Of a DNA stretch of 64,000 nucleotides, positions 5,539 through 16,328 are shown one piece after another. The position numbers and the translations under genes are program-made. Origin of the DNA: Acidobacteriota bacterium (GTDB taxonomy: Bacteria > Acidobacteriota > Vicinamibacteria > Vicinamibacterales > 2-12-FULL-66-21). A model generated the notes under the pieces. It was not told the DNA's origin. It saw only the letters and a program-made list of their open reading frames with translations, and searched no databases. The stretch is from the NCBI GenBank assembly GCA_046735335.1, contig JBKPTE010000015.1:16183-80182 (forward strand). Reading direction: 5' to 3'. How positions within the stretch are numbered: position 1 is the stretch's first letter; each line of letters starts with the position of its first letter.

Positions 5539-6812
5539 TCGCGAGGGTCGGCGCGCTGCTGCTCATCGTCGCGACGATGACGCTCGTCCAACGCGTCGGT
5601 CCGCCTGCCGCCGCATCGACGGTCTCCCTCCCATTGGGGTTCGCGGTAATCGCCGCGTACCTTCTCGGTCTCGGCGTCGAGCGCATCAACCTGCCTCGCC
5701 TCAGCGGGTACTTGCTCTTCGGGCTGTTGTGCGGACCCGATTTGCTGAACCTGATCACGTCTACGATGGCCCGTGACCTGCAGATCGTGAACGGCCTCGC
5801 CCTCGCGCTGATTGCGCTGGTCGCAGGCCTCGAGCTGAACGTTCGCGCCATACGCGCGCAGCTGCGCAACGTGCTGGTCATCGGCAGCGTCGTCATGCTC
5901 GGTACCGTCTTCGTCCTGACGATCGTCCTCTGGGCTGCATGGCCGATCCTGCCGTTCGGGGGCGCGACCTCGGGGTACGAACGGATCGTGGCGGCCACGA
6001 TCACGGCGGGGCTCGTCGCGAGCTTCTCGCCGACCGTGACGATCGCGGTCATCGCGGAAACACGATCGCGTGGCCCGCTGACGCAGCTCGTGATGGCCGT
6101 CGTCATCATGGCGGATCTGCTGCTGATCTTCATGTTCGCGCTGACGACGCAATTTGCGCGATGGACCGGCGGCGCGGCGCCGGCCACCGTCGGCGTGGGG
6201 CCGCAGCTCTCGTGGGACATTCTGGGATCGCTCGCGTTCGGGGGCATCGTCGGCGCAGCATTCGCGGCATACCTGCGGCTCGTGAGACGAGAGATCACGC
6301 TGGCGCTGCTGGCCGTCTGTGCGCTGCTCGCGCTCCTCGCGCCGGTGCTCCACCTCGAGCTCATTCTCACCGCGCTTGCGGCAGGGCTCGTCGTCGAGAA
6401 CGTCGCGCCGCCGGAAGGGGACGAGCTGCGGACGGCCATCGAACGGGGTGCGCTGCCGGTCCTGGTGGCGTTCTTCGCTGCCGCCGGCGCATCGCTGCGG
6501 CTCGACGTGCTGGCCGCGCTCGGCGGCATCGCGCTGTTCCTCGCGCTGCTGAGACTCGGACTGATCTGGGGACTTTCAGAATGGTCTGTCCGGCGGCGAT
6601 CGGGGGAGGGACCGCTGCGTCTCGTCTGGATGGGCCTCATCTCGCAGGCCGGCGTGACGCTCGGTCTCGCGACGCTCGTAGCGGCGGAATTCCCGGCGTG
6701 GGGTTCCCCGGTGCGCACGCTCGTCATCGCGCTGACCGGCCTTCACATTCTGATCGGTCCCATCCTGTTCAAGGCTGCGCTGCAGCGCGCCGGAGAGCTC
6801 GATCGGGCGTGA
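5535..6812 (+). CDS. Cation:proton antiporter (CPA2-like) B
   Basis: GTG overlapping the upstream stop; LPRLSGYLLFGLLCGP, AGLEL, SPTVTIAVI, QAGVTLGL. Confidence 0.85.
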   Translation: MIARVGALLLIVATMTLVQRVGPPAAASTVSLPLGFAVIAAYLLGLGVERINLPRLSGYLLFGLLCGPDLLNLITSTMARDLQIVNGLALALIALVAGLELNVRAIRAQLRNVLVIGSVVMLGTVFVLTIVLWAAWPILPFGGATSGYERIVAATITAGLVASFSPTVTIAVIAETRSRGPLTQLVMAVVIMADLLLIFMFALTTQFARWTGGAAPATVGVGPQLSWDILGSLAFGGIVGAAFAAYLRLVRREITLALLAVCALLALLAPVLHLELILTALAAGLVVENVAPPEGDELRTAIERGALPVLVAFFAAAGASLRLDVLAALGGIALFLALLRLGLIWGLSEWSVRRRSGEGPLRLVWMGLISQAGVTLGLATLVAAEFPAWGSPVRTLVIALTGLHILIGPILFKAALQRAGELDRA

Positions 6813-6818
6813 TCGGCG

Positions 6819-7670
6819 CTACCGCCGCTTCTCAGGTACGCGCCGCTGGCCGGCGCCGTCGTAGCTGTGATCCTTCGGGTCGATCTGACGCATGGGGCGC
6901 TCGCGTTGGCGCTCTTCCTGCGCGTGCGCGGTGATGCCGGGCACGCGCGAGACGATGAACAGCGCGTTGGCGATTTCGGGCGGAATGCCGATGTCCCCGC
7001 AGACAGCGGCAATCGCGCCGTCGATGTTCACCGGGACGCGCTGGCCCTCGGGCAGTTCGGCGGCGACCAGCTCCACGGCGCGAATCATCTGGATGTGCGC
7101 CCCCTCGGCCTCGAGCTCCAGCGCCATCTGGAACAGCCGCGCCGCGCGCGGGTCGCGCGTGTGGAACCGGTGCCCGAACCCGGGGATCTGTTCACCGGCT
7201 TCGAGGCACTTCTGGACGATCGTGCGGGCGGCGTCCTTGTACGAGCTGCCGCGCCGCACCAGCTCGAGGCCGGCGTCGAGGAACTGCATGCAGCTCTCGA
7301 TGTCGCCGCCGTGGAAGCGGCCGAAGCCGAGCACGCCCGCGGCCACGCACGCGCGCAGCGGCGCGCCGGTGGTGGCCGTGTTGCGGGCCGCAAGCGTCGA
7401 GGGCGGCGTCGCCCCGTGGTCGATGAAGGACACCAGCATCGCCTCCATCAGGCTGCCGATCGACGGGGACGGCACCTCGCCCATGAGCAGCAGATAGATG
7501 GCTTCGCCGAACGTCAGCCGGCCCATCATCTCGTCCAGCGGATAGCCGCGCACGAGGATCTTGTTCGGCTCGATGCACGTGAGCGCGGTGCGCCACTTCT
7601 CTTCGTGGCCGCCCGACGGCAGCGCGCCGACGGCGGTTGCAGAAGGGCCGGGTCGACGTGTCTTCGCCAT
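6819..7670 (-). CDS. Citryl-CoA lyase / citrate synthase-like protein
   Basis: ILVRGYPL, DHG, HGG, PGFGH...DPR and NIDG motifs; ATG 7670. Confidence 0.85.
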   Translation of the reverse strand: MAKTRRPGPSATAVGALPSGGHEEKWRTALTCIEPNKILVRGYPLDEMMGRLTFGEAIYLLLMGEVPSPSIGSLMEAMLVSFIDHGATPPSTLAARNTATTGAPLRACVAAGVLGFGRFHGGDIESCMQFLDAGLELVRRGSSYKDAARTIVQKCLEAGEQIPGFGHRFHTRDPRAARLFQMALELEAEGAHIQMIRAVELVAAELPEGQRVPVNIDGAIAAVCGDIGIPPEIANALFIVSRVPGITAHAQEERQRERPMRQIDPKDHSYDGAGQRRVPEKRR

Positions 7671-7672
7671 GA

Positions 7673-8296
7673 CTACACCGTCCCGTACAGCCGATCGCCG
7701 AAATCTCCGAGCCCGGGCACGATGAACTTGTGCGCGTTCAGCTCCCGATCGATTGCTGGGGTGTAGATGCGCACGCGCGGATGGCAACGCTCGACCAGCG
7801 CGACGCCTTCGGGCGCGGCCACGATGCAGATCAGTCGGATGTCGCGGGCGCCAGCGTTCTTCAACAATCCCAGCGCCGCGACGGCGCTTCCACCCGTCGC
7901 CAGCATCGGATCGATCATCAGTACCACGCTTTCCTCCAGCGCGCGCGGCAGCTTCGCATAGTACTGCGACGCGATGGCGGTAATCTCGTCGCGCTGCAGG
8001 CCGATGTGCCCCACACGTGCGCCGGGGATCAGCTCCAGCACGGCGTCGAGCATGCCGAGGCCCGCGCGCAGCACGGGGACGACGACGACGTCCGCCGCCA
8101 GGCGCCGTCCGTCCGCGGATGCCAGCGGCGTCTGCACGGCGACCGCTTCCGACGGCAGATCGCGCGTGGCTTCGGCTGCGAGCAGGAGGCTGATGCGCAC
8201 CGCCATCCGACGGAACAGTTCCGGCGCCGTGGCCGCATCGCGCAGCGTCACGAGCGCATCGTGCACGAGCGGATGATCCACCAGATGCACGGGCAC
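7673..8296 (-). CDS. upp: Uracil phosphoribosyltransferase
   Basis: VLRAGLGM, DPMLATGGS, IVPGLGDFGDRLYGT. Confidence 0.97.
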   Translation of the reverse strand: MPVHLVDHPLVHDALVTLRDAATAPELFRRMAVRISLLLAAEATRDLPSEAVAVQTPLASADGRRLAADVVVVPVLRAGLGMLDAVLELIPGARVGHIGLQRDEITAIASQYYAKLPRALEESVVLMIDPMLATGGSAVAALGLLKNAGARDIRLICIVAAPEGVALVERCHPRVRIYTPAIDRELNAHKFIVPGLGDFGDRLYGTV

Positions 8297-8318
8297 GGGG
8301 GAACTATACAACACACTC

Positions 8319-8405
8319 GATTGCAGACTGCCGATTGCAGATTGCCGATTGAATTGACGATTGGGGATTGGGGATTGGGGAGTGGATTGGGGATTGGGGA
8401 TTGGC
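8319..8405. repeat. Heptamer tandem repeats (GATTGCM / GATTGGG)
   Basis: Repeated GATTGNN units between divergent genes. Confidence 0.85.
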
Positions 8406-8451
8406 GCAAACCGGGCGGAGCGCCGGCGCAGTATAGAATCGGCTGAACTCG

Positions 8452-9858
8452 ATGCAATTCTGGCGATGGCTCGTTCTCCTCTCGACTGTGGTGCTCGCCG
8501 CGGCGCAGACGCCCGTGCGGCGGCCGGTGTCGCTGATTGTGACGCACGGCACGGTCGTGACGGTCGATGCGAACCGGCGCGTCATCGAGAACGGCGCGGT
8601 GGCGATCGACGGGCGCGACATCGCGGCCGTCGACACGAGTGACGCGATCGACGCACGCTTCTCGGCGTCGGACACGATCGACGCGACCGGCGCGGTCGTC
8701 ATGCCAGGGCTGATCAACACGCACACGCACGCGCCGATGGTCCTCTATCGCGGGCTCGCCGACGACCTCGCCCTGATGGACTGGCTGCAGAAGTACATCT
8801 TTCCTGCGGAAGCGAAGACGGTTTCTCCGGAGTTCGTCCGTGCCGGCACACGGCTGGCCGCGCTGGAGATGATCGAGTCCGGCACGACGACCTACGCGGA
8901 CATGTATTACTTCGAGGAGGAAGTCGCCCGCGCCACGAAAGCCGCAGGGCTGCGCGGCGTGCTCGGAGAAACCATCATCCAGTTTCCCGTGCCCGACGCG
9001 AAAACGCCGGCGCAGGGGATCGCGCGCGCCGAGACGTTCGTCCGCGAGTTCCAGGGCGACGACCTGATCACGCCCGCGATCGCGCCGCACGCGATGTATA
9101 CCCTCGATACCGAGACGCTGAAGGCATGCCGGAGGTTTGCGGATTCGTTCGCTACGCCCGTCATCATTCACGTGGCGGAGACGGAGGCCGAGGTTCAGGC
9201 CTCGCAGGAGAAGTTTGGCAAGACGCCCGTCGCCTACCTCGAGTCGATCGGCTTCTGGGGACCGCGGACGCTCGCAGCCCACGGCGTGCACGTCACGCAG
9301 GCCGACATCGACGTGCTGGCCCGGCGGCGCGTCGCCGTCTCGCACAATCCCGAGAGCAACATGAAGCTGGCGAGCGGCACGGCGCCCGTGATCGCGATGC
9401 GCAAGGCCGGCGTGACGGTCGCGCTCGGCACCGACGGCGCGGCCAGCAACAACGACCTCGACATGTTCGAGGCCATGCGGCAGGCCGCATTCCTGCACAA
9501 GTTGGTCTCCGGAGACCCGCGCGCGATTCCGGCGCCCACGGCAGTAGAGATGGCGACGATCGACGGCGCCCGCGCGCTCGGAATGGATCGCGAAATCGGG
9601 TCGCTCGAGCCTGGCAAGCGCGCCGATGTGATCGTGGTTTCGATGCAGTCCGCGCGCCAGACGCCGATGTACGACCCCTTGTCCCACCTCGTCTACGTCA
9701 CCCGCGGCGACGACGTGCGCACGACGATCGTGAATGGCCGCGTCCTCATGCGCGACAGAAAGGTCCTGTCGCTCGACCGCGCACACGTCCTCTCCGACGC
9801 GCGTGGCTTCGCCGCCCGGGTGCGCGAGGCCGTCGGGCCCGAAGGCGTCAAGCGATGA
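8452..9858 (+). CDS. Amidohydrolase, MTA/SAH deaminase (MtaD)-like, with signal-peptide-like N-terminus
   Basis: PGLINTHTH, APH, HVAET, AHGV, HNPESNMKLASG, GTDGAASNN. Confidence 0.88.
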   Translation: MQFWRWLVLLSTVVLAAAQTPVRRPVSLIVTHGTVVTVDANRRVIENGAVAIDGRDIAAVDTSDAIDARFSASDTIDATGAVVMPGLINTHTHAPMVLYRGLADDLALMDWLQKYIFPAEAKTVSPEFVRAGTRLAALEMIESGTTTYADMYYFEEEVARATKAAGLRGVLGETIIQFPVPDAKTPAQGIARAETFVREFQGDDLITPAIAPHAMYTLDTETLKACRRFADSFATPVIIHVAETEAEVQASQEKFGKTPVAYLESIGFWGPRTLAAHGVHVTQADIDVLARRRVAVSHNPESNMKLASGTAPVIAMRKAGVTVALGTDGAASNNDLDMFEAMRQAAFLHKLVSGDPRAIPAPTAVEMATIDGARALGMDREIGSLEPGKRADVIVVSMQSARQTPMYDPLSHLVYVTRGDDVRTTIVNGRVLMRDRKVLSLDRAHVLSDARGFAARVREAVGPEGVKR

Positions 9859-10388
9859 CGACGAGCGTCACCGTCTTGATTTCAGAAAAGGAAATCCAGA
9901 ACCGCATTCGATCCCTGGCTGCCGAGATCGAGCGCGACTACCCGCCGGGCGAGGAGATCCACCTCGTTGCCGTGCTCAAGGGCGGATTCATGTTCATGGC
10001 GGATCTCGTCCGCGCCATGGGTCCTCACGTGACGATGGATTTCATGGCGGTGTCGAGCTACGGCAAGAGCACGAAGTCCTCGGGACAGGTGCGCGTCCTC
10101 AAGGATCTCGACAGCAGCCTGGAAGGACGCCACATCATCATCGTCGAGGACATCGTCGATACTGGGTTGACGCTGCACTATCTGCAGAACATCCTGCGTG
10201 CACGCGCGCCCAGGACGGTGCGGACGGCGTGCCTGCTCAGCAAGCCGACGCGGCGCCAGGTCGACGTCGCGGTTGATTACGTTGGATTCACGATCGACGA
10301 TTACTTCGTCGTGGGATACGGCCTCGATTACGCGGAGAAGTACCGCAACCTGCCGTACATCGCCGTGCTCGGTGACGGGGGCGAATGA
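9855..10388 (+). CDS. hpt: Hypoxanthine phosphoribosyltransferase
   Basis: VLKG, IVEDIVDTGLTL, FVVGYGLDY; ATGA overlap with upstream gene. Confidence 0.96.
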   Translation: MTTSVTVLISEKEIQNRIRSLAAEIERDYPPGEEIHLVAVLKGGFMFMADLVRAMGPHVTMDFMAVSSYGKSTKSSGQVRVLKDLDSSLEGRHIIIVEDIVDTGLTLHYLQNILRARAPRTVRTACLLSKPTRRQVDVAVDYVGFTIDDYFVVGYGLDYAEKYRNLPYIAVLGDGGE

Positions 10389-11032
10389 GCGTGGTCCGGC
10401 GGTTCGACATCATCACGGAAGCAGATGCGCGGCAGATCGAGCACGGTGCGACCGTCGAATTGTCGGCCGGCGGGCACGTCACGCCGCTTGCGCGCGACAC
10501 GCTGAACGCCCGCCGCGTGACGGTTGTGCCTGCAGGATCCATCGATGCGTCGCTTCCAGGCGATCTCGCGCCTCCCGCGGAGATTCGCAGGGTCGCGATC
10601 GCAAGCGACCATACGGGCGTCGCGCTGAGGACGGCGCTCGTCCAGCATCTCCGCAGCCGCGGGCTCGCCGTGCAGGATCTCGGCGTCGACGGGAAGGTGC
10701 CCGCGGACTATCCTGACACCGCCGCGGCCGTCGCCAGGACCGTCGCCCGCGGAGAAGCAGACGCGGGGATCGTGATCGACGGCGCCGGGATTGGATCGGC
10801 GATTGCGGGGAACAAGATCCGCGGCGTCCGGGCGGCGATGTGCACGAACGAAACGCTCGCGCGCTACTCGCGCGAACACAACGGCGCGAACGTGCTCGCG
10901 CTCGGATCGACGTTGCTCGACGGCACCGAAACGGCGATCCGCATCGTCGACGTCTTTCTTGGCACGCCCATGAAAGAAGCCAGGTACATCCGTCGGCTGC
11001 TGAAGATCCGGCGTTTGGAGGAGAGCTTCTGA
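10385..11032 (+). CDS. rpiB: RpiB/LacA/LacB sugar-phosphate isomerase with extra N-terminal domain
   Basis: ASDHTG, DYPD, DGAGIGS, NKIRGVRAA, REHNGANVL. Confidence 0.88.
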   Translation: MSVVRRFDIITEADARQIEHGATVELSAGGHVTPLARDTLNARRVTVVPAGSIDASLPGDLAPPAEIRRVAIASDHTGVALRTALVQHLRSRGLAVQDLGVDGKVPADYPDTAAAVARTVARGEADAGIVIDGAGIGSAIAGNKIRGVRAAMCTNETLARYSREHNGANVLALGSTLLDGTETAIRIVDVFLGTPMKEARYIRRLLKIRRLEESF

Positions 11033-11042
11033 GTGAGAGGGC

Positions 11043-11232
11043 GGTCACGGCGGGGCTCACGCAGAGGGCGCAGAGGAGCAGAGATCGGTCACGGCGGGGA
11101 GCTCACGCGGACGCCGCCGTCGGTGAATGGGCGCGTTCGCGCCGTTCGGCCGGCCAGGCGAACGCTCCCATTCACCAGCAGCGCCCGGCCTCTCGCGTCC
11201 TCTTGCTCTTTGCGTGCTCGGCGTGAGATCCG
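11043..11232. repeat. 9-mer-type repeats (CGCAGAG) with complementary downstream arm; GGTCACGGCGGGG duplicated
   Basis: cgcagagggcgcagaggagcagag upstream and ctctcgcgtcctcttgctctttgcgtg downstream. Confidence 0.6.
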
Positions 11233-11250
11233 CTGCTCGAATTGTGCAGC

Positions 11251-12132
11251 ATGCTCAACCCTAACGACCTGCGGCGACTCGTCGAGATCATCACGGAGGA
11301 AGTCGTCTCCGTTCAGCGGGGCGGGAGGGCGCCCTCGACGTGCCAGTGCCACGCGGTGCTGTACGAGTGCTGTCCCGATCGGCTGCGCGGCGTGCTGGAC
11401 GCGGGTGCCACGCGCATCGGCCTGCACGCGACCGGGGGATCGGCGGGGACGATCGCGGGCATGATCGATCACACGCTGCTCAAGCCCGACGCGACGCGCG
11501 CGGACATCGAGAAACTGTGTAGCGAAGCAGCCGAGTTCCGGTTCGCCACCGTCTGCGTGAATCCGACCTGGGTAGCCGTATCGGCATCGCGTCTCCGGGG
11601 AACCGGCGTGGGCGTCTGTTCGGTCGTCGGGTTTCCGCTCGGCGCGACGACGGCGGACGTCAAGCACTACGAGACGCGCCGCGCAATCTTCGACGGGGCA
11701 GCGGAAATCGACATGGTCATCAACATCGGCGCGCTGAAGTCGGGCGACCTGCGGCTCGTCGAGGGCGACATCGCTGCCGTCGTGTCACCCTGCCGCGAAG
11801 CGAACGTCGTCAGCAAGGTGATCATCGAGGCCGTACTGCTGACCGACGAAGAAAAGATCACGGCGTGCACCCTGGCGAAAGCGGCGGGCGCGGATTTCGT
11901 GAAGACGTCCACCGGTTTTGCCTCCGGAGGCGCGACGCCCGCCGACGTTGCGTTGATGCGGCGCGTCGTGGGCGCAGAGATGGGCGTGAAGGCGGCCGGA
12001 GGCGTTCGCGATTACGAAGGCCTGAAGGCCATGGTCGCGGCGGGTGCCACGCGGGTCGGCGCAAGCGCCGGAGTCCGGATCGTGCAGCAGTCGCGAGGTG
12101 ACAGCGCCCCCTCGGCTTCGTCGGGCTACTGA
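11251..12132 (+). CDS. deoC: Deoxyribose-phosphate aldolase with N-terminal extension
   Basis: [48 protein letters not shown]. Confidence 0.95.
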
Positions 12133-13244
12133 CTCGACCGAATCGTCGTCAACGCCACGGTGCGCTGCGGCGACCACATGTCGATCCCGCGCTCCTTCAG
12201 CGCCCTCAGGATGCGCCTGCGCAGCTCGCGCCCGACGAACCATTGCTTCAGCGGCGCCGTCTTGATGCGTAGCTTCAGCCGGACCGCGTTCTCCTCGAAC
12301 GCGTCGACCCCGATGATTTCGAGCGGTGCCAGGATGAACGGCTTGTAGGCGTCCTCCGCCTGCATTGCCGCGCCGATCTCGGTCAGCAGTGCCGTGACGC
12401 GGTGGACGTCCTCGCCGTAGGCGAGCGGCAGGTTGATCACGTAGTAGCTGAAGTCCTTGCTTCGATTCGCGAGCGTGTTGATGGCGCCGTTCGGGATCAC
12501 GTGGACCGTGCCTTCCTCGTCCCGCAGCACGATCGTCCGCAGGTTGATTGCTTCGACCAGCCCGCCGATGCCGTTGATCGCCGCGACGTCGCCGACGCGC
12601 ACCTGGTCCTCGAGAATGAGGAAGAAGCCTCCGATGAGGTCGCGAACGAGCGTCTGCGCGCCGAAGCCGAGCGCGACGCCCACGATGCCGGCGCCGGTCA
12701 CCGCGGGCGTGATGTCGACTCGGAACTCGCGCAGCACCATCAGGAACGCAATGACGATCACGAGGACCGTGGTGACGCTCGTGAGCACGCTCCCAAGCGT
12801 CCGCGCACGCTTCGCGCGCTCGAGCGCATCGAGTCCGGTCCCGAAGTTCACGTCGGTCTCGAACCGCTTGACGCCGATCGCGACCATGCGAATCAGCGCG
12901 TACGCGACCGCGACGATGAGCAGGACGCGAAGGCCGGAGTCGAAAAACCAGGCGCTCAGCGTGCGAAGGTGCACGCCGGCGCGGGGCCGGAGGCCGGTCA
13001 GCTCGAACGCGGGAAAGATGAAGACCCCGAACACGAGGACGAACACCGCAAAGCCGATGAGCCGAAGCGGCGTGCGAACCGGCGGGCTCGAGGTGGCGAC
13101 CGTGTCGGCGAGGAGATGCCGCATGATCGCCGTCAGGACGCGCCGCGCGGCCCGGGCCGCCACCCAGGCGACGAGTGCGGTCGGGATCACCGCCAGCGCC
13201 ACCAGGCGCCAGCTCACGGGGTCCAGGAAGAGCCTCGGAGGCAT
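12126..13244 (-). CDS. Small-conductance mechanosensitive channel (MscS/YbiO-like)
   Basis: [35 protein letters not shown]. Confidence 0.92.
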
Positions 13245-13275
13245 GAGGGGAGCATAACAAAGCGGGTGGAGGCAT

Positions 13276-13318
13276 CCTCGTCGCGCGCAACCTCGTCGCG
13301 CGCAACCTCAGTTGCGCG
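13276..13318. repeat. 15-bp tandem duplication plus REP-like hairpin CGCGCAAC-CTCA-GTTGCGCG
   Basis: 28 of 30 nt identical to 54544-54573. Confidence 0.75.
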
Positions 13319-13336
13319 GGTCACAACTTGCGCGAC

Positions 13337-14719
13337 TCAGAAATTGCTCGTGAGCGAGAGCGGCGCGGCCGCCTGCAGCGGCAGCCGCAGGCTCGCTCGG
13401 CAGCCCGGGCGATCGTCGCGGTTCTCCAGGAGGAGGCTCCCGCCGTGCGCCTCCGCGATCTGACGGCTCAACACGAGGCCGATCCCCGATCCGCCGGGCT
13501 TCGTCGTGAAGAACGGTACGAACAGGTTGCCGGTGTTCGACAGGCCCGGTCCTTCGTCCTCGACCCACAGCTCCATCGTTGCCGGCCAGGAGCCCGGGAG
13601 ACGCTGCCACCCGATGCTGACGCCGCCTCCGGTCTCGCGCACGGCATCCATGGCGTTCCGAAGCAGATTGATCAGGAGCTGTTCGAGCTGGTCGCTGTCG
13701 CCCTGAATCGTCAGGCGCGGTCCTCCTGCGTTCATGATGTTGTGCCCCTTCTCGAGCGTCACCACCCGGTCGATGACCGCACCGACGTCGAGCGGCGCAA
13801 ACTTGGGCGGCGGAAGCTTGGCGAGTCGGGCGTAGGCGTTCATGAACCTGCTGAGCGATTCCGATCGGCTCGCGATGACGCCGAGGCCGCGCTGCACATC
13901 CTGGCGCCAATCCGACGGCGGCGGATCGCGCTCCAGGATGGTCGCGAGGCTGCCGGCGATCGACTTGATGGGCGCGAGCGAGTTGTTCATCTCGTGCCCG
14001 ATGACGCGGATCAGCCGCTGCCAGGCCTGCCGCTCCTCTTCGCGCAGGGGCTGACTGAGGTCCGACAGGACCAGCAGTTCGTGAGGGCGTCCCCCCTGCC
14101 GGAACGAGCTGCGGCGGATCTCCCATCGGCCGACGCCGCCCGGGAACGCCGTGTTGATGACGCGCGGGGCCTCGCCGACGAGACAGTCTTCGAGGCCGAG
14201 CTCGTCGGCGCGCCGGCCGAGCAGCCGCTCCGCCGTCTGGCTGAGGAGCCGCGCGCCGGCGCGGTTGACGAACTTCAACTCTCGATCCTGATCGAACGTG
14301 AAGACGGCGACTTCGATCTCCGCCATCACCTTGCGGAGGAGCGTCGTCGCCTCCATCGCGTCGAGACGCTGGTGACGGAGCGTTTCGACGAGCGTGTTGA
14401 CCTCGATCATCACCTCGCCGAGCGGATCGCCGCCGCGCGCGCCCCGCGCGCGTATCGAGAAATCCCCCTCGCCGAGCGCCGCGAGCAGGTTGGACAGCGT
14501 CTGCAGTGGAAGGACGACGCGTTCACGGAGCGCGAAGGCGAAGCCGAGGCAGAAGGTGATGATGAGGACGGTCAGCGTCCACTGGACCTTGGGCGTGTAA
14601 TCGCCCGTCCACAGGAAGATGAGGGAGATGAGCGCGCCGGGCAGCGCCGACGCGAACGCCATGAGCAGGATCCGGCGGTCGTGACTGAGCCGCGGCTCGC
14701 GCGGACGAGTGGTCGCCAT
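13337..14719 (-). CDS. Sensor histidine kinase (HAMP-PAS-HK)
   Basis: HEMNNSLAPI H-box, N-box, DEGPG, FFTTKPGGSGIGL. Confidence 0.92.
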   Translation of the reverse strand: MATTRPREPRLSHDRRILLMAFASALPGALISLIFLWTGDYTPKVQWTLTVLIITFCLGFAFALRERVVLPLQTLSNLLAALGEGDFSIRARGARGGDPLGEVMIEVNTLVETLRHQRLDAMEATTLLRKVMAEIEVAVFTFDQDRELKFVNRAGARLLSQTAERLLGRRADELGLEDCLVGEAPRVINTAFPGGVGRWEIRRSSFRQGGRPHELLVLSDLSQPLREEERQAWQRLIRVIGHEMNNSLAPIKSIAGSLATILERDPPPSDWRQDVQRGLGVIASRSESLSRFMNAYARLAKLPPPKFAPLDVGAVIDRVVTLEKGHNIMNAGGPRLTIQGDSDQLEQLLINLLRNAMDAVRETGGGVSIGWQRLPGSWPATMELWVEDEGPGLSNTGNLFVPFFTTKPGGSGIGLVLSRQIAEAHGGSLLLENRDDRPGCRASLRLPLQAAAPLSLTSNF

Positions 14720-14723
14720 GTCA

Positions 14724-14888
14724 ATGTCGGACGACGAATGTCGAACGTCGAATTCTGGATGTCGAGTGAATGCCCCCATTTTGCCATCGGGGACCCATGT
14801 CAGCATTCAGCATTCAACATTCGGCATTCATTCGGCATTCAACATTCGGCATTTACCATTCGTCGTTCGTCATTCGTCGTTCGACATT
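14724..14888. repeat. Heptamer repeat cluster with inverted arms (GAATGTC vs CATTCGG / TTCGTCG)
   Basis: Multiple 7-mer units in the response regulator-kinase intergenic gap. Confidence 0.85.
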
Positions 14889-14897
14889 GGCAACGGA

Positions 14898-16328
14898 CTA
14901 CAAGCCATACCGCTGTAGGCGACGGTACAGTGCCGATCGGCTCAAGCCGAGCGCCTTCGCGGCCTGACTGACGTTGCCGTCGAAGCGGGTCATGGCCTTC
15001 TTGATCAGGAAGCACTCGACGTCCTCGAGGCTCATGTCCTCGAGGCGGCCCCCTCCGTCGCGCGTGCTCCGGAGGCCCAGATCCGCGGGCTTGACGAGCG
15101 GCCCCTGCGCCATCAGTACCGCGCGCTCGACCGCGTGATCCAGCTCGCGGACGTTGCCCGGCCAACTGTGTTCCAGCAGGATCTGCATCGCGCCGCTCTC
15201 GAACCCCGTCAAGCGCTTGCGGTACCGCTGCGCGTGCTGGCGGAGGAAGTGCTGCGCGAGGAGCGGCAGGTCCTCGCGGCGATCGCGCAGCGGCGGCAGG
15301 CGGATTTCTATCGTGTTCAGCCGGAAGAGCAGATCCTGGCGGAAGCGTCCGCTCGCGACCTCCTCGTTGAGCGTGGCGTTGGTCGCCGAGATGACGCGGA
15401 CGTCGACGCGCCGGGTCCGTGAGGAGCCGAGCCGCTCGAACTCGCCCGTCTCGATCACGCGCAGCAGCTTCGCCTGCTGGCTGAGCGGAACGTTGGCGAT
15501 CTCGTCGAGGAACAGCGTGCCCTGGTCCGCCAGCTCGAACCGGCCGACGCGGTCGCTCTTCGCGTCCGTGAACGCGCCGCGGACGTGGCCGAACAGCTCG
15601 CTTTCGAACACGCCTTCCGAGACGCCCCCCGAGTTCACGATCACCATCGGCCGCGACGCGCGGCTGGACACCGCGTGCAGCGCCCGTGCGACGACCCCCT
15701 TGCCCGTGCCGTTCTCTCCCAGCACGAGGACGTTTGCATCCGAGGGGCCGACGCGCGAGATCACCTGCAGCACGCCCTGCATCGACGGTGACTCGGCGAT
15801 GAGCTTCGGCATCCCCTCGCCGCGCAGCAGCGAGTTCTCCGCCTCGAGCCGCTGGCCCTTTCGAAGCGCCTGGCTCAGCTCGATCTGCGTGCGGATGATC
15901 GCGAGCAGCCGCGCGTTGTCCCACGGCTTCTGGATGAAATCCCGCGCGCCCCGGCGCATCGCTTCCACCGCGACTTCCACGCTGCCCCAGGCGGTCATGA
16001 CCACCACCGGCAGCGTCGGGTCGATGCCCTGAATGCGCGACAGGAGGTTCAGTCCCTCTTCGCCGGACGTCGTGTCGCGCGCGTAGTTCAGATCGATGAG
16101 CGCGACGTCGAACTCGCGTGCCTCTATGGCCGCGAGCACACCGGCGGGCGACGACGCGGTCTCGAGCTGAAACCCCTCCGCTTTCAGGAGGAGCCTCAAG
16201 GCCTCGAGCACGTCCGATTGGTCGTCGGCGATCAGGACGCGCGGCTCCGCGGCACGTGCGGGATGGCGTAGGTGCTCGGCCGAATCGCTGCGATGCTCTT
16301 TGAGGTGGTCGGTGATCAGCATAGACAT
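14898..16328 (-). CDS. Sigma-54-dependent response regulator (NtrC family)
   Basis: REC, GENGTGK, ESELFGH..GAFTDA, WPGNVREL, Fis-type HTH. Confidence 0.95.
   Translation of the reverse strand: MSMLITDHLKEHRSDSAEHLRHPARAAEPRVLIADDQSDVLEALRLLLKAEGFQLETASSPAGVLAAIEAREFDVALIDLNYARDTTSGEEGLNLLSRIQGIDPTLPVVVMTAWGSVEVAVEAMRRGARDFIQKPWDNARLLAIIRTQIELSQALRKGQRLEAENSLLRGEGMPKLIAESPSMQGVLQVISRVGPSDANVLVLGENGTGKGVVARALHAVSSRASRPMVIVNSGGVSEGVFESELFGHVRGAFTDAKSDRVGRFELADQGTLFLDEIANVPLSQQAKLLRVIETGEFERLGSSRTRRVDVRVISATNATLNEEVASGRFRQDLLFRLNTIEIRLPPLRDRREDLPLLAQHFLRQHAQRYRKRLTGFESGAMQILLEHSWPGNVRELDHAVERAVLMAQGPLVKPADLGLRSTRDGGGRLEDMSLEDVECFLIKKAMTRFDGNVSQAAKALGLSRSALYRRLQRYGL

Follow-up and report, generated by a model that had tools for sequence, protein, structure and literature searches.

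In the classical enterobacterial deo operon, deoC, the gene for deoxyribose-phosphate aldolase (DERA), is grouped with deoA, deoB and deoD. DERA is also a cargo enzyme of the sugar-phosphate-utilising (SPU) bacterial microcompartments (BMCs), the types of which have been described previously (Dwyer, Sutter and Kerfeld, 2024, PMC11585597; Sutter, 2021, PMC8217296). DERA is stated to be unique to SPU loci, all SPU subtypes have the shell protein BMC-T, and every SPU-associated DERA is extended at its N-terminus by about 70 residues, which form an amphipathic helix and then a poorly modelled part and are missing from non-BMC DERAs (Dwyer et al., 2024, PMC11585597). The ribose-5-phosphate isomerases (RPIs) of SPU loci all have Asp for the catalytic Cys and keep the His; in the SPU6 type, the RPI is inactive on ribose-5-phosphate, and DERA and RPI form a complex (PMC11585597). 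Here, we analyze a stretch of 64,000 nucleotides from an Acidobacteriota genome (the window; G+C content of about 67%), in which upp is divergent from a run of amidohydrolase, hpt, rpiB and deoC genes (Table 1), and we argue that this is probably a distal locus, consisting of enzymes only, for the cargo of a fragmented bacterial microcompartment.

The other type of relevance is ACI, which has 125 members, is found in Acidobacteria only, mainly in subdivisions 4 and 6, and is characterized by a class II aldolase that bears an encapsulation peptide at its C-terminus, along with a hydroxyacid dehydrogenase, a triplet of BMC-P and one or more BMC-H (Sutter, 2021, PMC8217296). The aldehyde dehydrogenase (AldDH) of ACI is always placed at a satellite locus and, by phylogeny, is close only to that of MIC3; the description of the type in that survey names no DERA or RPI and ranks ACI among the types without an obvious aldehyde-generating signature enzyme other than the aldolase (PMC8217296). 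A satellite locus is defined there as a distal locus of shell proteins only, or of shell proteins and enzymes, and genes were gathered only within 12 open reading frames (ORFs) of a shell gene (PMC8217296), for which reason an enzyme-only locus would be invisible to the survey. Since the window locus contains enzymes only, it falls outside this satellite definition and outside shell-anchored surveys. No paper linking ACI to DERA was found in a literature search, to which the supplementary tables of Dwyer et al. (2024) and Sutter (2021), which may list ACI satellite contents, did not belong.

The first-pass annotation, made by a model from the letters of the window, described the divergent upp gene, a deaminase-hpt-rpiB-deoC run of which the first three genes overlap at ATGA, and extra N-terminal modules on both sugar-phosphate enzymes. 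The genes and their coordinates were confirmed, and ATGA overlaps are read in the sequence at 9855-9858 (amidohydrolase/hpt) and 10385-10388 (hpt/rpiB). The Pfam domains begin at residue 70 of 215 in RpiB and at residue 74 of 296 in DeoC, giving N-terminal extensions of about 70 residues in both proteins; no Pfam family matched either extension in a search at E<=10. deoC does not overlap its neighbor and is separated from rpiB by a gap of 218 nt, with a TTG at 11242 as the alternative, earliest possible start.

The extension of DeoC is 71 residues long. Its predicted helix (residues 4-23) contains the top hydrophobic-moment windows of the whole protein, 0.60-0.63, and as modelled would resemble an encapsulation peptide; past the helix, the extension is modelled at low confidence. 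It holds a Cys-rich stretch (C31, C33, H34, C40 and C41) that may be a metal or redox site, and a term search of the main text of Dwyer et al. (2024, PMC11585597) gave no mention of Cys or metal in the DERA extension. Such a cluster of four Cys (or Cys/His) is also seen in other DERA extensions (L132-L150, L019, L025, L041, L084), with a spacing that varies by lineage, and is reduced in some Blastocatellia-like sequences. The mean pairwise identity within the order is 0.53 for the extension as compared to 0.77 for the DeoC core, and reaches 0.73 in residues 45-58 of the extension. In the core, D154, K218 and K247 do not vary among 101 sequences, and their spacing of 64 and 29 residues is that of D165/K229/K258 in Dwyer et al. 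(2024, PMC11585597). Judged by alignment, the window DeoC carries the published hallmarks of SPU cargo, namely the N-terminal extension and the conserved Asp/Lys/Lys. Homologs of the extension were identified in 3857 proteins at E<=1e-3, of which the 120 best have an identity of at least 76%, one of them being named Vicinamibacterales; DERAs of Planococcus (L066) and Lysinibacillus (L080) do not have it.

In RpiB, Asp132 aligns with the catalytic Cys of the solved RpiBs 3ph3, 1o1x and 1nn4, and neither D132 nor H165 varies among 71 sequences; the protein is probably a pseudo-isomerase. A second RpiB, encoded on contig C85, scores higher and has Gly at the catalytic-Cys position and Glu a few residues on; in our own reading of the alignment, this Glu may correspond to the Glu variant of the Mycobacterium tuberculosis RpiB that is mentioned in the Discussion of Dwyer et al. 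(2024, PMC11585597). The C85 enzyme is available for normal metabolism, and no RpiA was found in a search of the genome. As for the additional module that was annotated at the N-terminus of the window RpiB, it is present, but AlphaFold2 predicts a folded mini-domain (beta-alpha-beta-alpha-beta) and not a helical peptide.

A search of the whole genome for the shell domains PF00936 and PF03319, as proposed in the first-pass annotation, yielded matches on contigs C19, C30 and C93 only, which together encode three BMC-H and three BMC-P proteins. Genes for a class II aldolase, a BMC-H, three tandem BMC-P (PF03319) and a 2-hydroxyacid dehydrogenase are contiguous in C19:9230-12500. The aldolase (PF00596, 5.2e-49, residues 19-194 of 292) ends in an amphipathic helix, a putative encapsulation peptide judged from its sequence: the hydrophobic moment of the C-terminal 18 residues is 0.51, and the top windows of the protein are at 272-274. 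On C30, a BMC-H gene is located immediately upstream of the gene for a 583-residue AldDH, which scores 609.9 bits on the model for acetylating acetaldehyde dehydrogenase, TIGR02518 (cut-off, 620.1), and 28 of 30 loci from the order likewise have BMC-H directly upstream of AldDH. The third BMC-H gene (C93:9192-9476, L009) stands alone between DUF1501/DUF1800 genes and a gene for pterin-4a-carbinolamine dehydratase, with no enzyme partner recognized.

The statement that the window itself has no BMC or AldDH gene was borne out. A tblastn search of the 64 kb with the AldDH, class II aldolase, BMC-H and BMC-P of the same genome returned nothing at E<=1e-3, and when 70 of the 97 ORFs of at least 230 aa in the window were scanned with Pfam, no Aldedh or BMC domain was recovered; among the other 27, five were covered by another Pfam scan and 22 that are overlapping or antisense were left out.

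We compared these features to the two published microcompartment types. Like the SPU6 type of Chloroflexota, the window has a DERA that is lengthened at the N-terminus by about 70 residues (a helix and a less ordered part) and has an intact D/K/K, adjoined by an RPI in which Asp replaces the catalytic Cys. The BMC-P triplet and the acetaldehyde-type acylating AldDH of the source genome are also SPU-like, and its AldDH and C30 BMC-H are 47-54% and 77-84% identical, respectively, to those of the rpiB-deoC-shell loci of Anaerolineae type. Unlike SPU, the DERA and RPI of the window are located outside any shell locus and are joined to base-salvage genes, the main shell locus of the genome holds a class II aldolase and a hydroxyacid dehydrogenase, and searches of the genome gave neither BMC-T nor phosphotransacylase (PTAC); the extension of the RPI is predicted to be a folded mini-domain of 45 residues, as compared to a helix and linker in the SPU6 RPI. 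Of the features of an SPU locus, the combination of DERA with shell genes and AldDH is not seen in the window, and the BMC-P triplet is provided by C19. In contrast, the aldolase with its C-terminal helix, the hydroxyacid dehydrogenase (PF00389/PF02826), the BMC-P triplet and BMC-H, the AldDH on a separate locus with BMC-H, and the Acidobacteriota host all agree with ACI, and the shell layout of the source genome is that published for ACI. What sets it apart from ACI is the DERA/RPI pair with cargo hallmarks at another locus. The link to SPU microcompartments proposed in the first-pass annotation therefore stands for the cargo enzymes, which are SPU-like, and not for the shell locus, which is of the ACI type and not of a described SPU type. 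The window locus is SPU-like by cargo and ACI by its shell locus, and by definition it is neither a main nor a "satellite" locus. New here is an enzyme-only operon, probably for distal cargo, that is joined to base salvage and bridges two published microcompartment types.

A further connection between the window and the C30 locus is a small module shared by RpiB and AldDH. The C-terminal extension of the AldDH comprises a helix, a linker rich in Pro and a module about 40 residues long, an architecture that is conserved across the order. Comparison of this module with the N-terminal module of RpiB by hhalign gave a probability of 96.8% and an E-value of 2.7e-10 over 40 columns, and a single BLASTP comparison gave 1e-6; by these alignments, the two modules are homologous. 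With a hidden Markov model (HMM) of the RpiB module built without AldDH, the AldDH was the only other match among 46,958 ORFs (E 0.031), and with the reverse HMM the window RpiB was the best non-self match (E 0.15), with E-values of 1e-4 to 4e-3 for the RpiBs of three other loci. The AldDH module is retained in genomes without DeoC and RpiB, and its partner can therefore not be RpiB alone. A complex prediction for the two modules returned no answer (score 0.00) and is evidence neither way.

A profile of the module matched 1905 clusters at E<=1e-3 in a search against 1.84 billion representatives. Among the best 150 of these 1905, 80 include the AldDH core or linker, 68 contain the module only, mostly as short fragments (median 89 aa), one is an RpiB and one is unrelated; a Pfam scan of 44 of the 150, mostly of at least 140 aa, found one RpiB, two Aldedh and a scatter of other domains, most of the 44 having none, and no further cargo class with the module was established among the best 150. 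One representative RpiB, P0121 (405 aa), has two copies of the module before the isomerase domain. A relationship to the Pfam family PDU_like (PF15953) is a weak lead: 9 of 27 AldDH C-termini match it (best E 0.0043; the first member scores 11.8 bits, cut-off 27), it was at rank 2 with a score of 0.80 in an Atlas look-alike search, and the RpiB/AldDH module does not reach the gathering score. Nothing was found in the literature on the family PF15953/PduM, and a PDB profile search with the AldDH module gave only chance-level matches to designed proteins.

We also compared 80 genome loci, searching a neighborhood of 10 kb for shell genes. Such genes are present within 10 kb in 46 of the 80, mostly from Chloroflexota and in the order rpiB-deoC-BMC-P-AldDH-BMC-H-BMC-P-BMC-P. 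The extension could be aligned in 59 loci, of which 39 have BMC-H or BMC-P within that distance; the extension of the window DeoC aligns with those of DERAs encoded beside shell genes, and genes with it are found directly beside BMC-H, BMC-P and AldDH genes in Chloroflexota, Bacteroidota, Acidimicrobiia and other phyla. In six loci from Vicinamibacterales/Acidobacteriota, upp, hpt, rpiB and deoC are retained and shell genes are absent, and five of the six have the amidohydrolase as well; a seventh (L014) has the amidohydrolase, hpt, rpiB and deoC and no upp.

In a sample of 401 genomes of the phylum, which includes the source genome (G000) and one unpublished genome (G152, used for counts only), the distribution of the extension is nested within that of the shell. 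BMC-P was identified in 208 genomes, the extension profile in 94, both in 92 and neither in 191, and the two genomes with the extension and without BMC-P are 75% and 55% complete. Shell genes are thus encoded in nearly all genomes that share the extension. The first-pass annotation had left the choice between a satellite cargo locus with the shell encoded elsewhere and a shell-less relic, and the shell and AldDH genes on other contigs, the SPU hallmarks and the co-occurrence in 92 of 94 genomes favor the former.

Could the cluster be a nucleoside operon of the usual deo-like kind, in which the N-terminal domains are particular to the lineage and unrelated to microcompartments, and the co-occurrence stems from shared ancestry? 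Its deaminase, hpt, upp and deoC genes resemble clusters for nucleoside catabolism and salvage, and kinship of the genomes inflates the co-occurrence. We consider this explanation very unlikely, since the same extension occurs beside BMC-H, BMC-P and AldDH genes in several phyla, the Asp substitution in RpiB is a published SPU hallmark (PMC11585597), and the RpiB module recurs on an AldDH that is encoded directly downstream of BMC-H throughout most of the order. As in the classical deo operon, DERA is tied to nucleoside breakdown, and the source genome has deoB and two phosphorylases of the purine nucleoside phosphorylase (PNP) family. Unlike that operon, deoC is here accompanied by hpt, upp and a deaminase, not by phosphorylases or a mutase, and DeoC and RpiB carry extensions, which non-BMC DERAs lack.

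The context of the extended deoC was examined for each of the 86 strong matches outside the source genome, in stretches of up to 19.9 kb. No shell gene was present in the stretch fetched for 78 of them, of which 57 were full-length and 21 were ended by contig ends, and the other eight are consolidated SPU-like loci with AldDH. The neighbors include rpiB in 64, hpt in 48 and upp in 23 of the 86 loci. All 48 loci with hpt beside the extended deoC are shell-less, and hpt is found beside none of the eight shell-linked loci of the phylum. All five genes occur together in 20 of the 86, every one from the order of the window. In this synteny comparison, of a kind proposed in the first-pass annotation, the arrangement of the window recurs across relatives, and the shell-less arrangement of the extended deoC is the rule in the phylum. 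On long contigs, the extended-deoC locus and the shell locus are far apart, at a distance of about 500 kb (G149) or 1.3 Mb (G002). The shell locus of G149 (L123, G149:C8:992000-1010000, family f40) contains BMC-H and three BMC-P genes, with a 626-aa ORF without assignment upstream. No class II aldolase or hydroxyacid dehydrogenase was found by tblastn within about 8 kb of it, and the f40 shell locus may therefore not be ACI; this genome shares the distal hpt-rpiB-deoC arrangement.

Several observations weigh against a distal cargo locus. No extension match was obtained in 116 of the 208 BMC-P-positive genomes. A shell without the extended DeoC is present in 13 of the 37 genomes of the order of the window, so that DERA and RPI would be accessory cargo, and four complete genomes of family f4 have shell genes and AldDH and no DeoC at all, from which it follows that the organelle does not need DERA. 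The scoring covered only 14 of the roughly 100 first-look candidates of each genome, and some extension-negative genomes may be misses; moreover, related genomes are not independent, and the two-by-two table of extension against BMC-P therefore overstates significance. In G399 (L212, G399:C2:2325173-2328679), a broken deoC without the extension is located beside hpt and upp. No BMC-T was found in the source genome, where a PF00936 search at E<=10 recovered three single-domain BMC-H and one chance-level match, and the check for PduL (PTAC) that the first-pass annotation had suggested ended without a match in the genome. For the shared module, the HMM-to-sequence matches are weak (E 0.031 and 0.15), and the profile-profile comparison alone is strong. 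The helix of the AldDH extension is not clearly amphipathic, with a hydrophobic moment of 0.26 as compared to a shuffle mean of 0.29. A cytosolic role of DERA and RPI is also conceivable.

Some of these observations would also be expected if the SPU-derived extended DeoC and RpiB were relic or repurposed cargo, now working as cytosolic enzymes of nucleoside catabolism, with the ACI-type shell serving the class II aldolase pathway only and the extensions kept for oligomerization, stability, or redox or metal sensing by the Cys cluster. Shell-bearing relatives manage without DeoC, the extension-less deoC of G399 is broken, the locus is placed among cytosolic salvage genes with translational coupling to hpt, and the published description of ACI has no DERA (PMC8217296). 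The window DeoC is also the sole true DERA found in the genome, with one genomic copy by tblastn, and must therefore serve any cytosolic need. However, a targeting helix that had lost its use would be expected to decay, whereas both this helix and the AGAxR motif show conservation in two classes, and the extension is present in only 2 of the 193 genomes without BMC-P, both incomplete. The extension also made the SPU6 DERA insoluble when the protein was expressed alone (Dwyer et al., 2024, PMC11585597), which would be a cost in the cytosol. On balance, we regard retention as purely cytosolic enzymes as unlikely, and continue to favor a distal cargo locus. The deoC remnant of L212 has an internal stop or frameshift and no rpiB, in a genome with shell genes and AldDH, and this locus is an apparent intermediate in the loss of the cargo module.

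If the window locus is distal cargo, one shell would be built from the ACI-type main locus, the BMC-H and AldDH satellite and the lone BMC-H on other contigs, and the window operon would be a second aldehyde-producing module. The amidohydrolase would deaminate nucleosides, which would be split by nucleoside phosphorylases encoded elsewhere; the freed bases would be salvaged by Hpt and Upp, and DeoB, also encoded elsewhere, would turn deoxyribose-1-phosphate into deoxyribose-5-phosphate. Directed to the shell by its N-terminal amphipathic helix, the extended DeoC would cleave deoxyribose-5-phosphate inside it into glyceraldehyde-3-phosphate plus acetaldehyde, from which the encapsulated AldDH would make acetyl-CoA. 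The RpiB paralog without the catalytic Cys would probably partner DeoC without being catalytic itself, a role shown for an SPU6 pair, and its mini-domain, the same module as in the AldDH C-terminus, may tie DERA and RPI to the AldDH core. A bolder combination, which we put forward tentatively and consider doubtful as a whole, is that the ACI-type organelle of many soil Acidobacteriota would be a two-input metabolosome with an SPU-type DERA, its second signature enzyme, always distal in a purine/pyrimidine salvage operon and the scavenging of DNA and nucleosides as a main job; that the dead RPI would be an adaptor, binding DERA by way of its core and the AldDH core by way of the shared, folded module of 40-45 residues, a new cargo-assembly domain distinct from amphipathic-helix encapsulation peptides; and that the DERA extension would bind metal through four Cys/His.

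Table 1. Features of the upp-deoC region of the window, with the evidence for each; pLDDT, predicted local distance difference test.
Feature	Coordinates	Strand	Evidence
upp, uracil phosphoribosyltransferase	7673-8314	-	PF14681 (UPRTase) 1.2e-67; TIGR01091 240.6 bits (cut-off 208.35)
upp/amidohydrolase divergent intergenic region, tandem GATTGGG-type heptamer repeats	8315-8451		sequence and blastn
Amidohydrolase, TRZ/ATZ / MtaD-like nucleoside deaminase group	8452-9858	+	PF01979 (Amidohydro_1) 1.5e-79
hpt, hypoxanthine phosphoribosyltransferase	9855-10388	+	TIGR01203 228.8 bits (cut-off 150)
rpiB, SPU-type paralog with N-terminal module	10385-11032	+	PF02502 at residues 70-208 of 215
RpiB N-terminal mini-domain, residues 5-49	10397-10531	+	AlphaFold2, pLDDT 84-97 over residues 1-50
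rpiB-deoC gap, dispersed palindromic repeat	11033-11250		218 nt, -124 kcal/mol
deoC, deoxyribose-phosphate aldolase with SPU-type N-terminal extension	11251-12132	+	TIGR00126 269.3 bits (cut-off 117.3)
Amphipathic helix of the DeoC extension, residues 4-23	11260-11319	+	modelled helix, pLDDT about 80-84
Cys-rich stretch of the DeoC extension, residues 31-41	11341-11373	+	alignments; pLDDT 55-69
AGAxR motif closing the DeoC extension	11401-11415	+	G52 invariant, A53 and R55 at least 90% conserved (101 sequences)

The best NCBIfam models for the amidohydrolase, those for TRZ/ATZ hydrolase (504 bits against a cut-off of 540) and 5'-deoxyadenosine/methylthioadenosine deaminase (380 bits against a cut-off of 522 for 5'-deoxyadenosine deaminase), all scored below their cut-offs; no specific substrate is therefore given to this enzyme. 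Its N-terminus (8452-8550) contains a hydrophobic stretch that by eye is signal-peptide-like, which would be unexpected for a deaminase translationally coupled to a cytosolic hpt. On the other side of the cluster, a citrate-synthase-like ORF (6819-7787, minus strand), with only the C-terminal part of PF00285, reaches about 115 nt into the 3' end of upp with its longest start, and its true start is probably further in.

Both intergenic regions contain repeats that are found elsewhere in the genome. Copies of the heptamer region with 74-90% identity were recovered by blastn in many other intergenic regions, on C109, C19, C153, C21, C131 and other contigs, and the region is thus not locus-specific; a GATTGGG-like pattern was also seen upstream of the C85 rpiB and near positions 14700-14970 of the window. 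In the rpiB-deoC gap, a hairpin at 11100-11200 has a folding energy of -57.7 kcal/mol (z -3.66), and the arms and flanks of the palindrome are repeated on more than 25 contigs. In the relatives L010 and L011, the corresponding gaps measure only about 38 and about 115 nt, respectively, without the palindromic repeat at this site. A riboswitch or attenuator was considered for the gap and rejected, because the sequence is dispersed genome-wide and relatives are without it here; it looks like a dispersed repeat of the repetitive extragenic palindrome or miniature inverted-repeat transposable element type. A scan of 7500-12400 for promoters and terminators gave nothing beyond the shuffle expectation, and an Rfam scan of 6500-13500 gave chance-level matches only, caused by the palindromic repeat.

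ACI is a major microcompartment type of soil Acidobacteria and has no assigned substrate in the survey of Sutter (2021, PMC8217296). If its DERA and RPI cargo is encoded in shell-less operons, shell-anchored surveys would miss the signature enzymes, and the function of a common soil organelle would become directly testable. The module shared by RPI and AldDH would provide a new handle for cargo-targeting studies and engineering. The presence of hpt, upp and a deaminase in the locus suggests that labor is divided, the sugar being burnt in the organelle and the bases being salvaged, and the locus thereby hints at what a common organelle of soil bacteria may burn.

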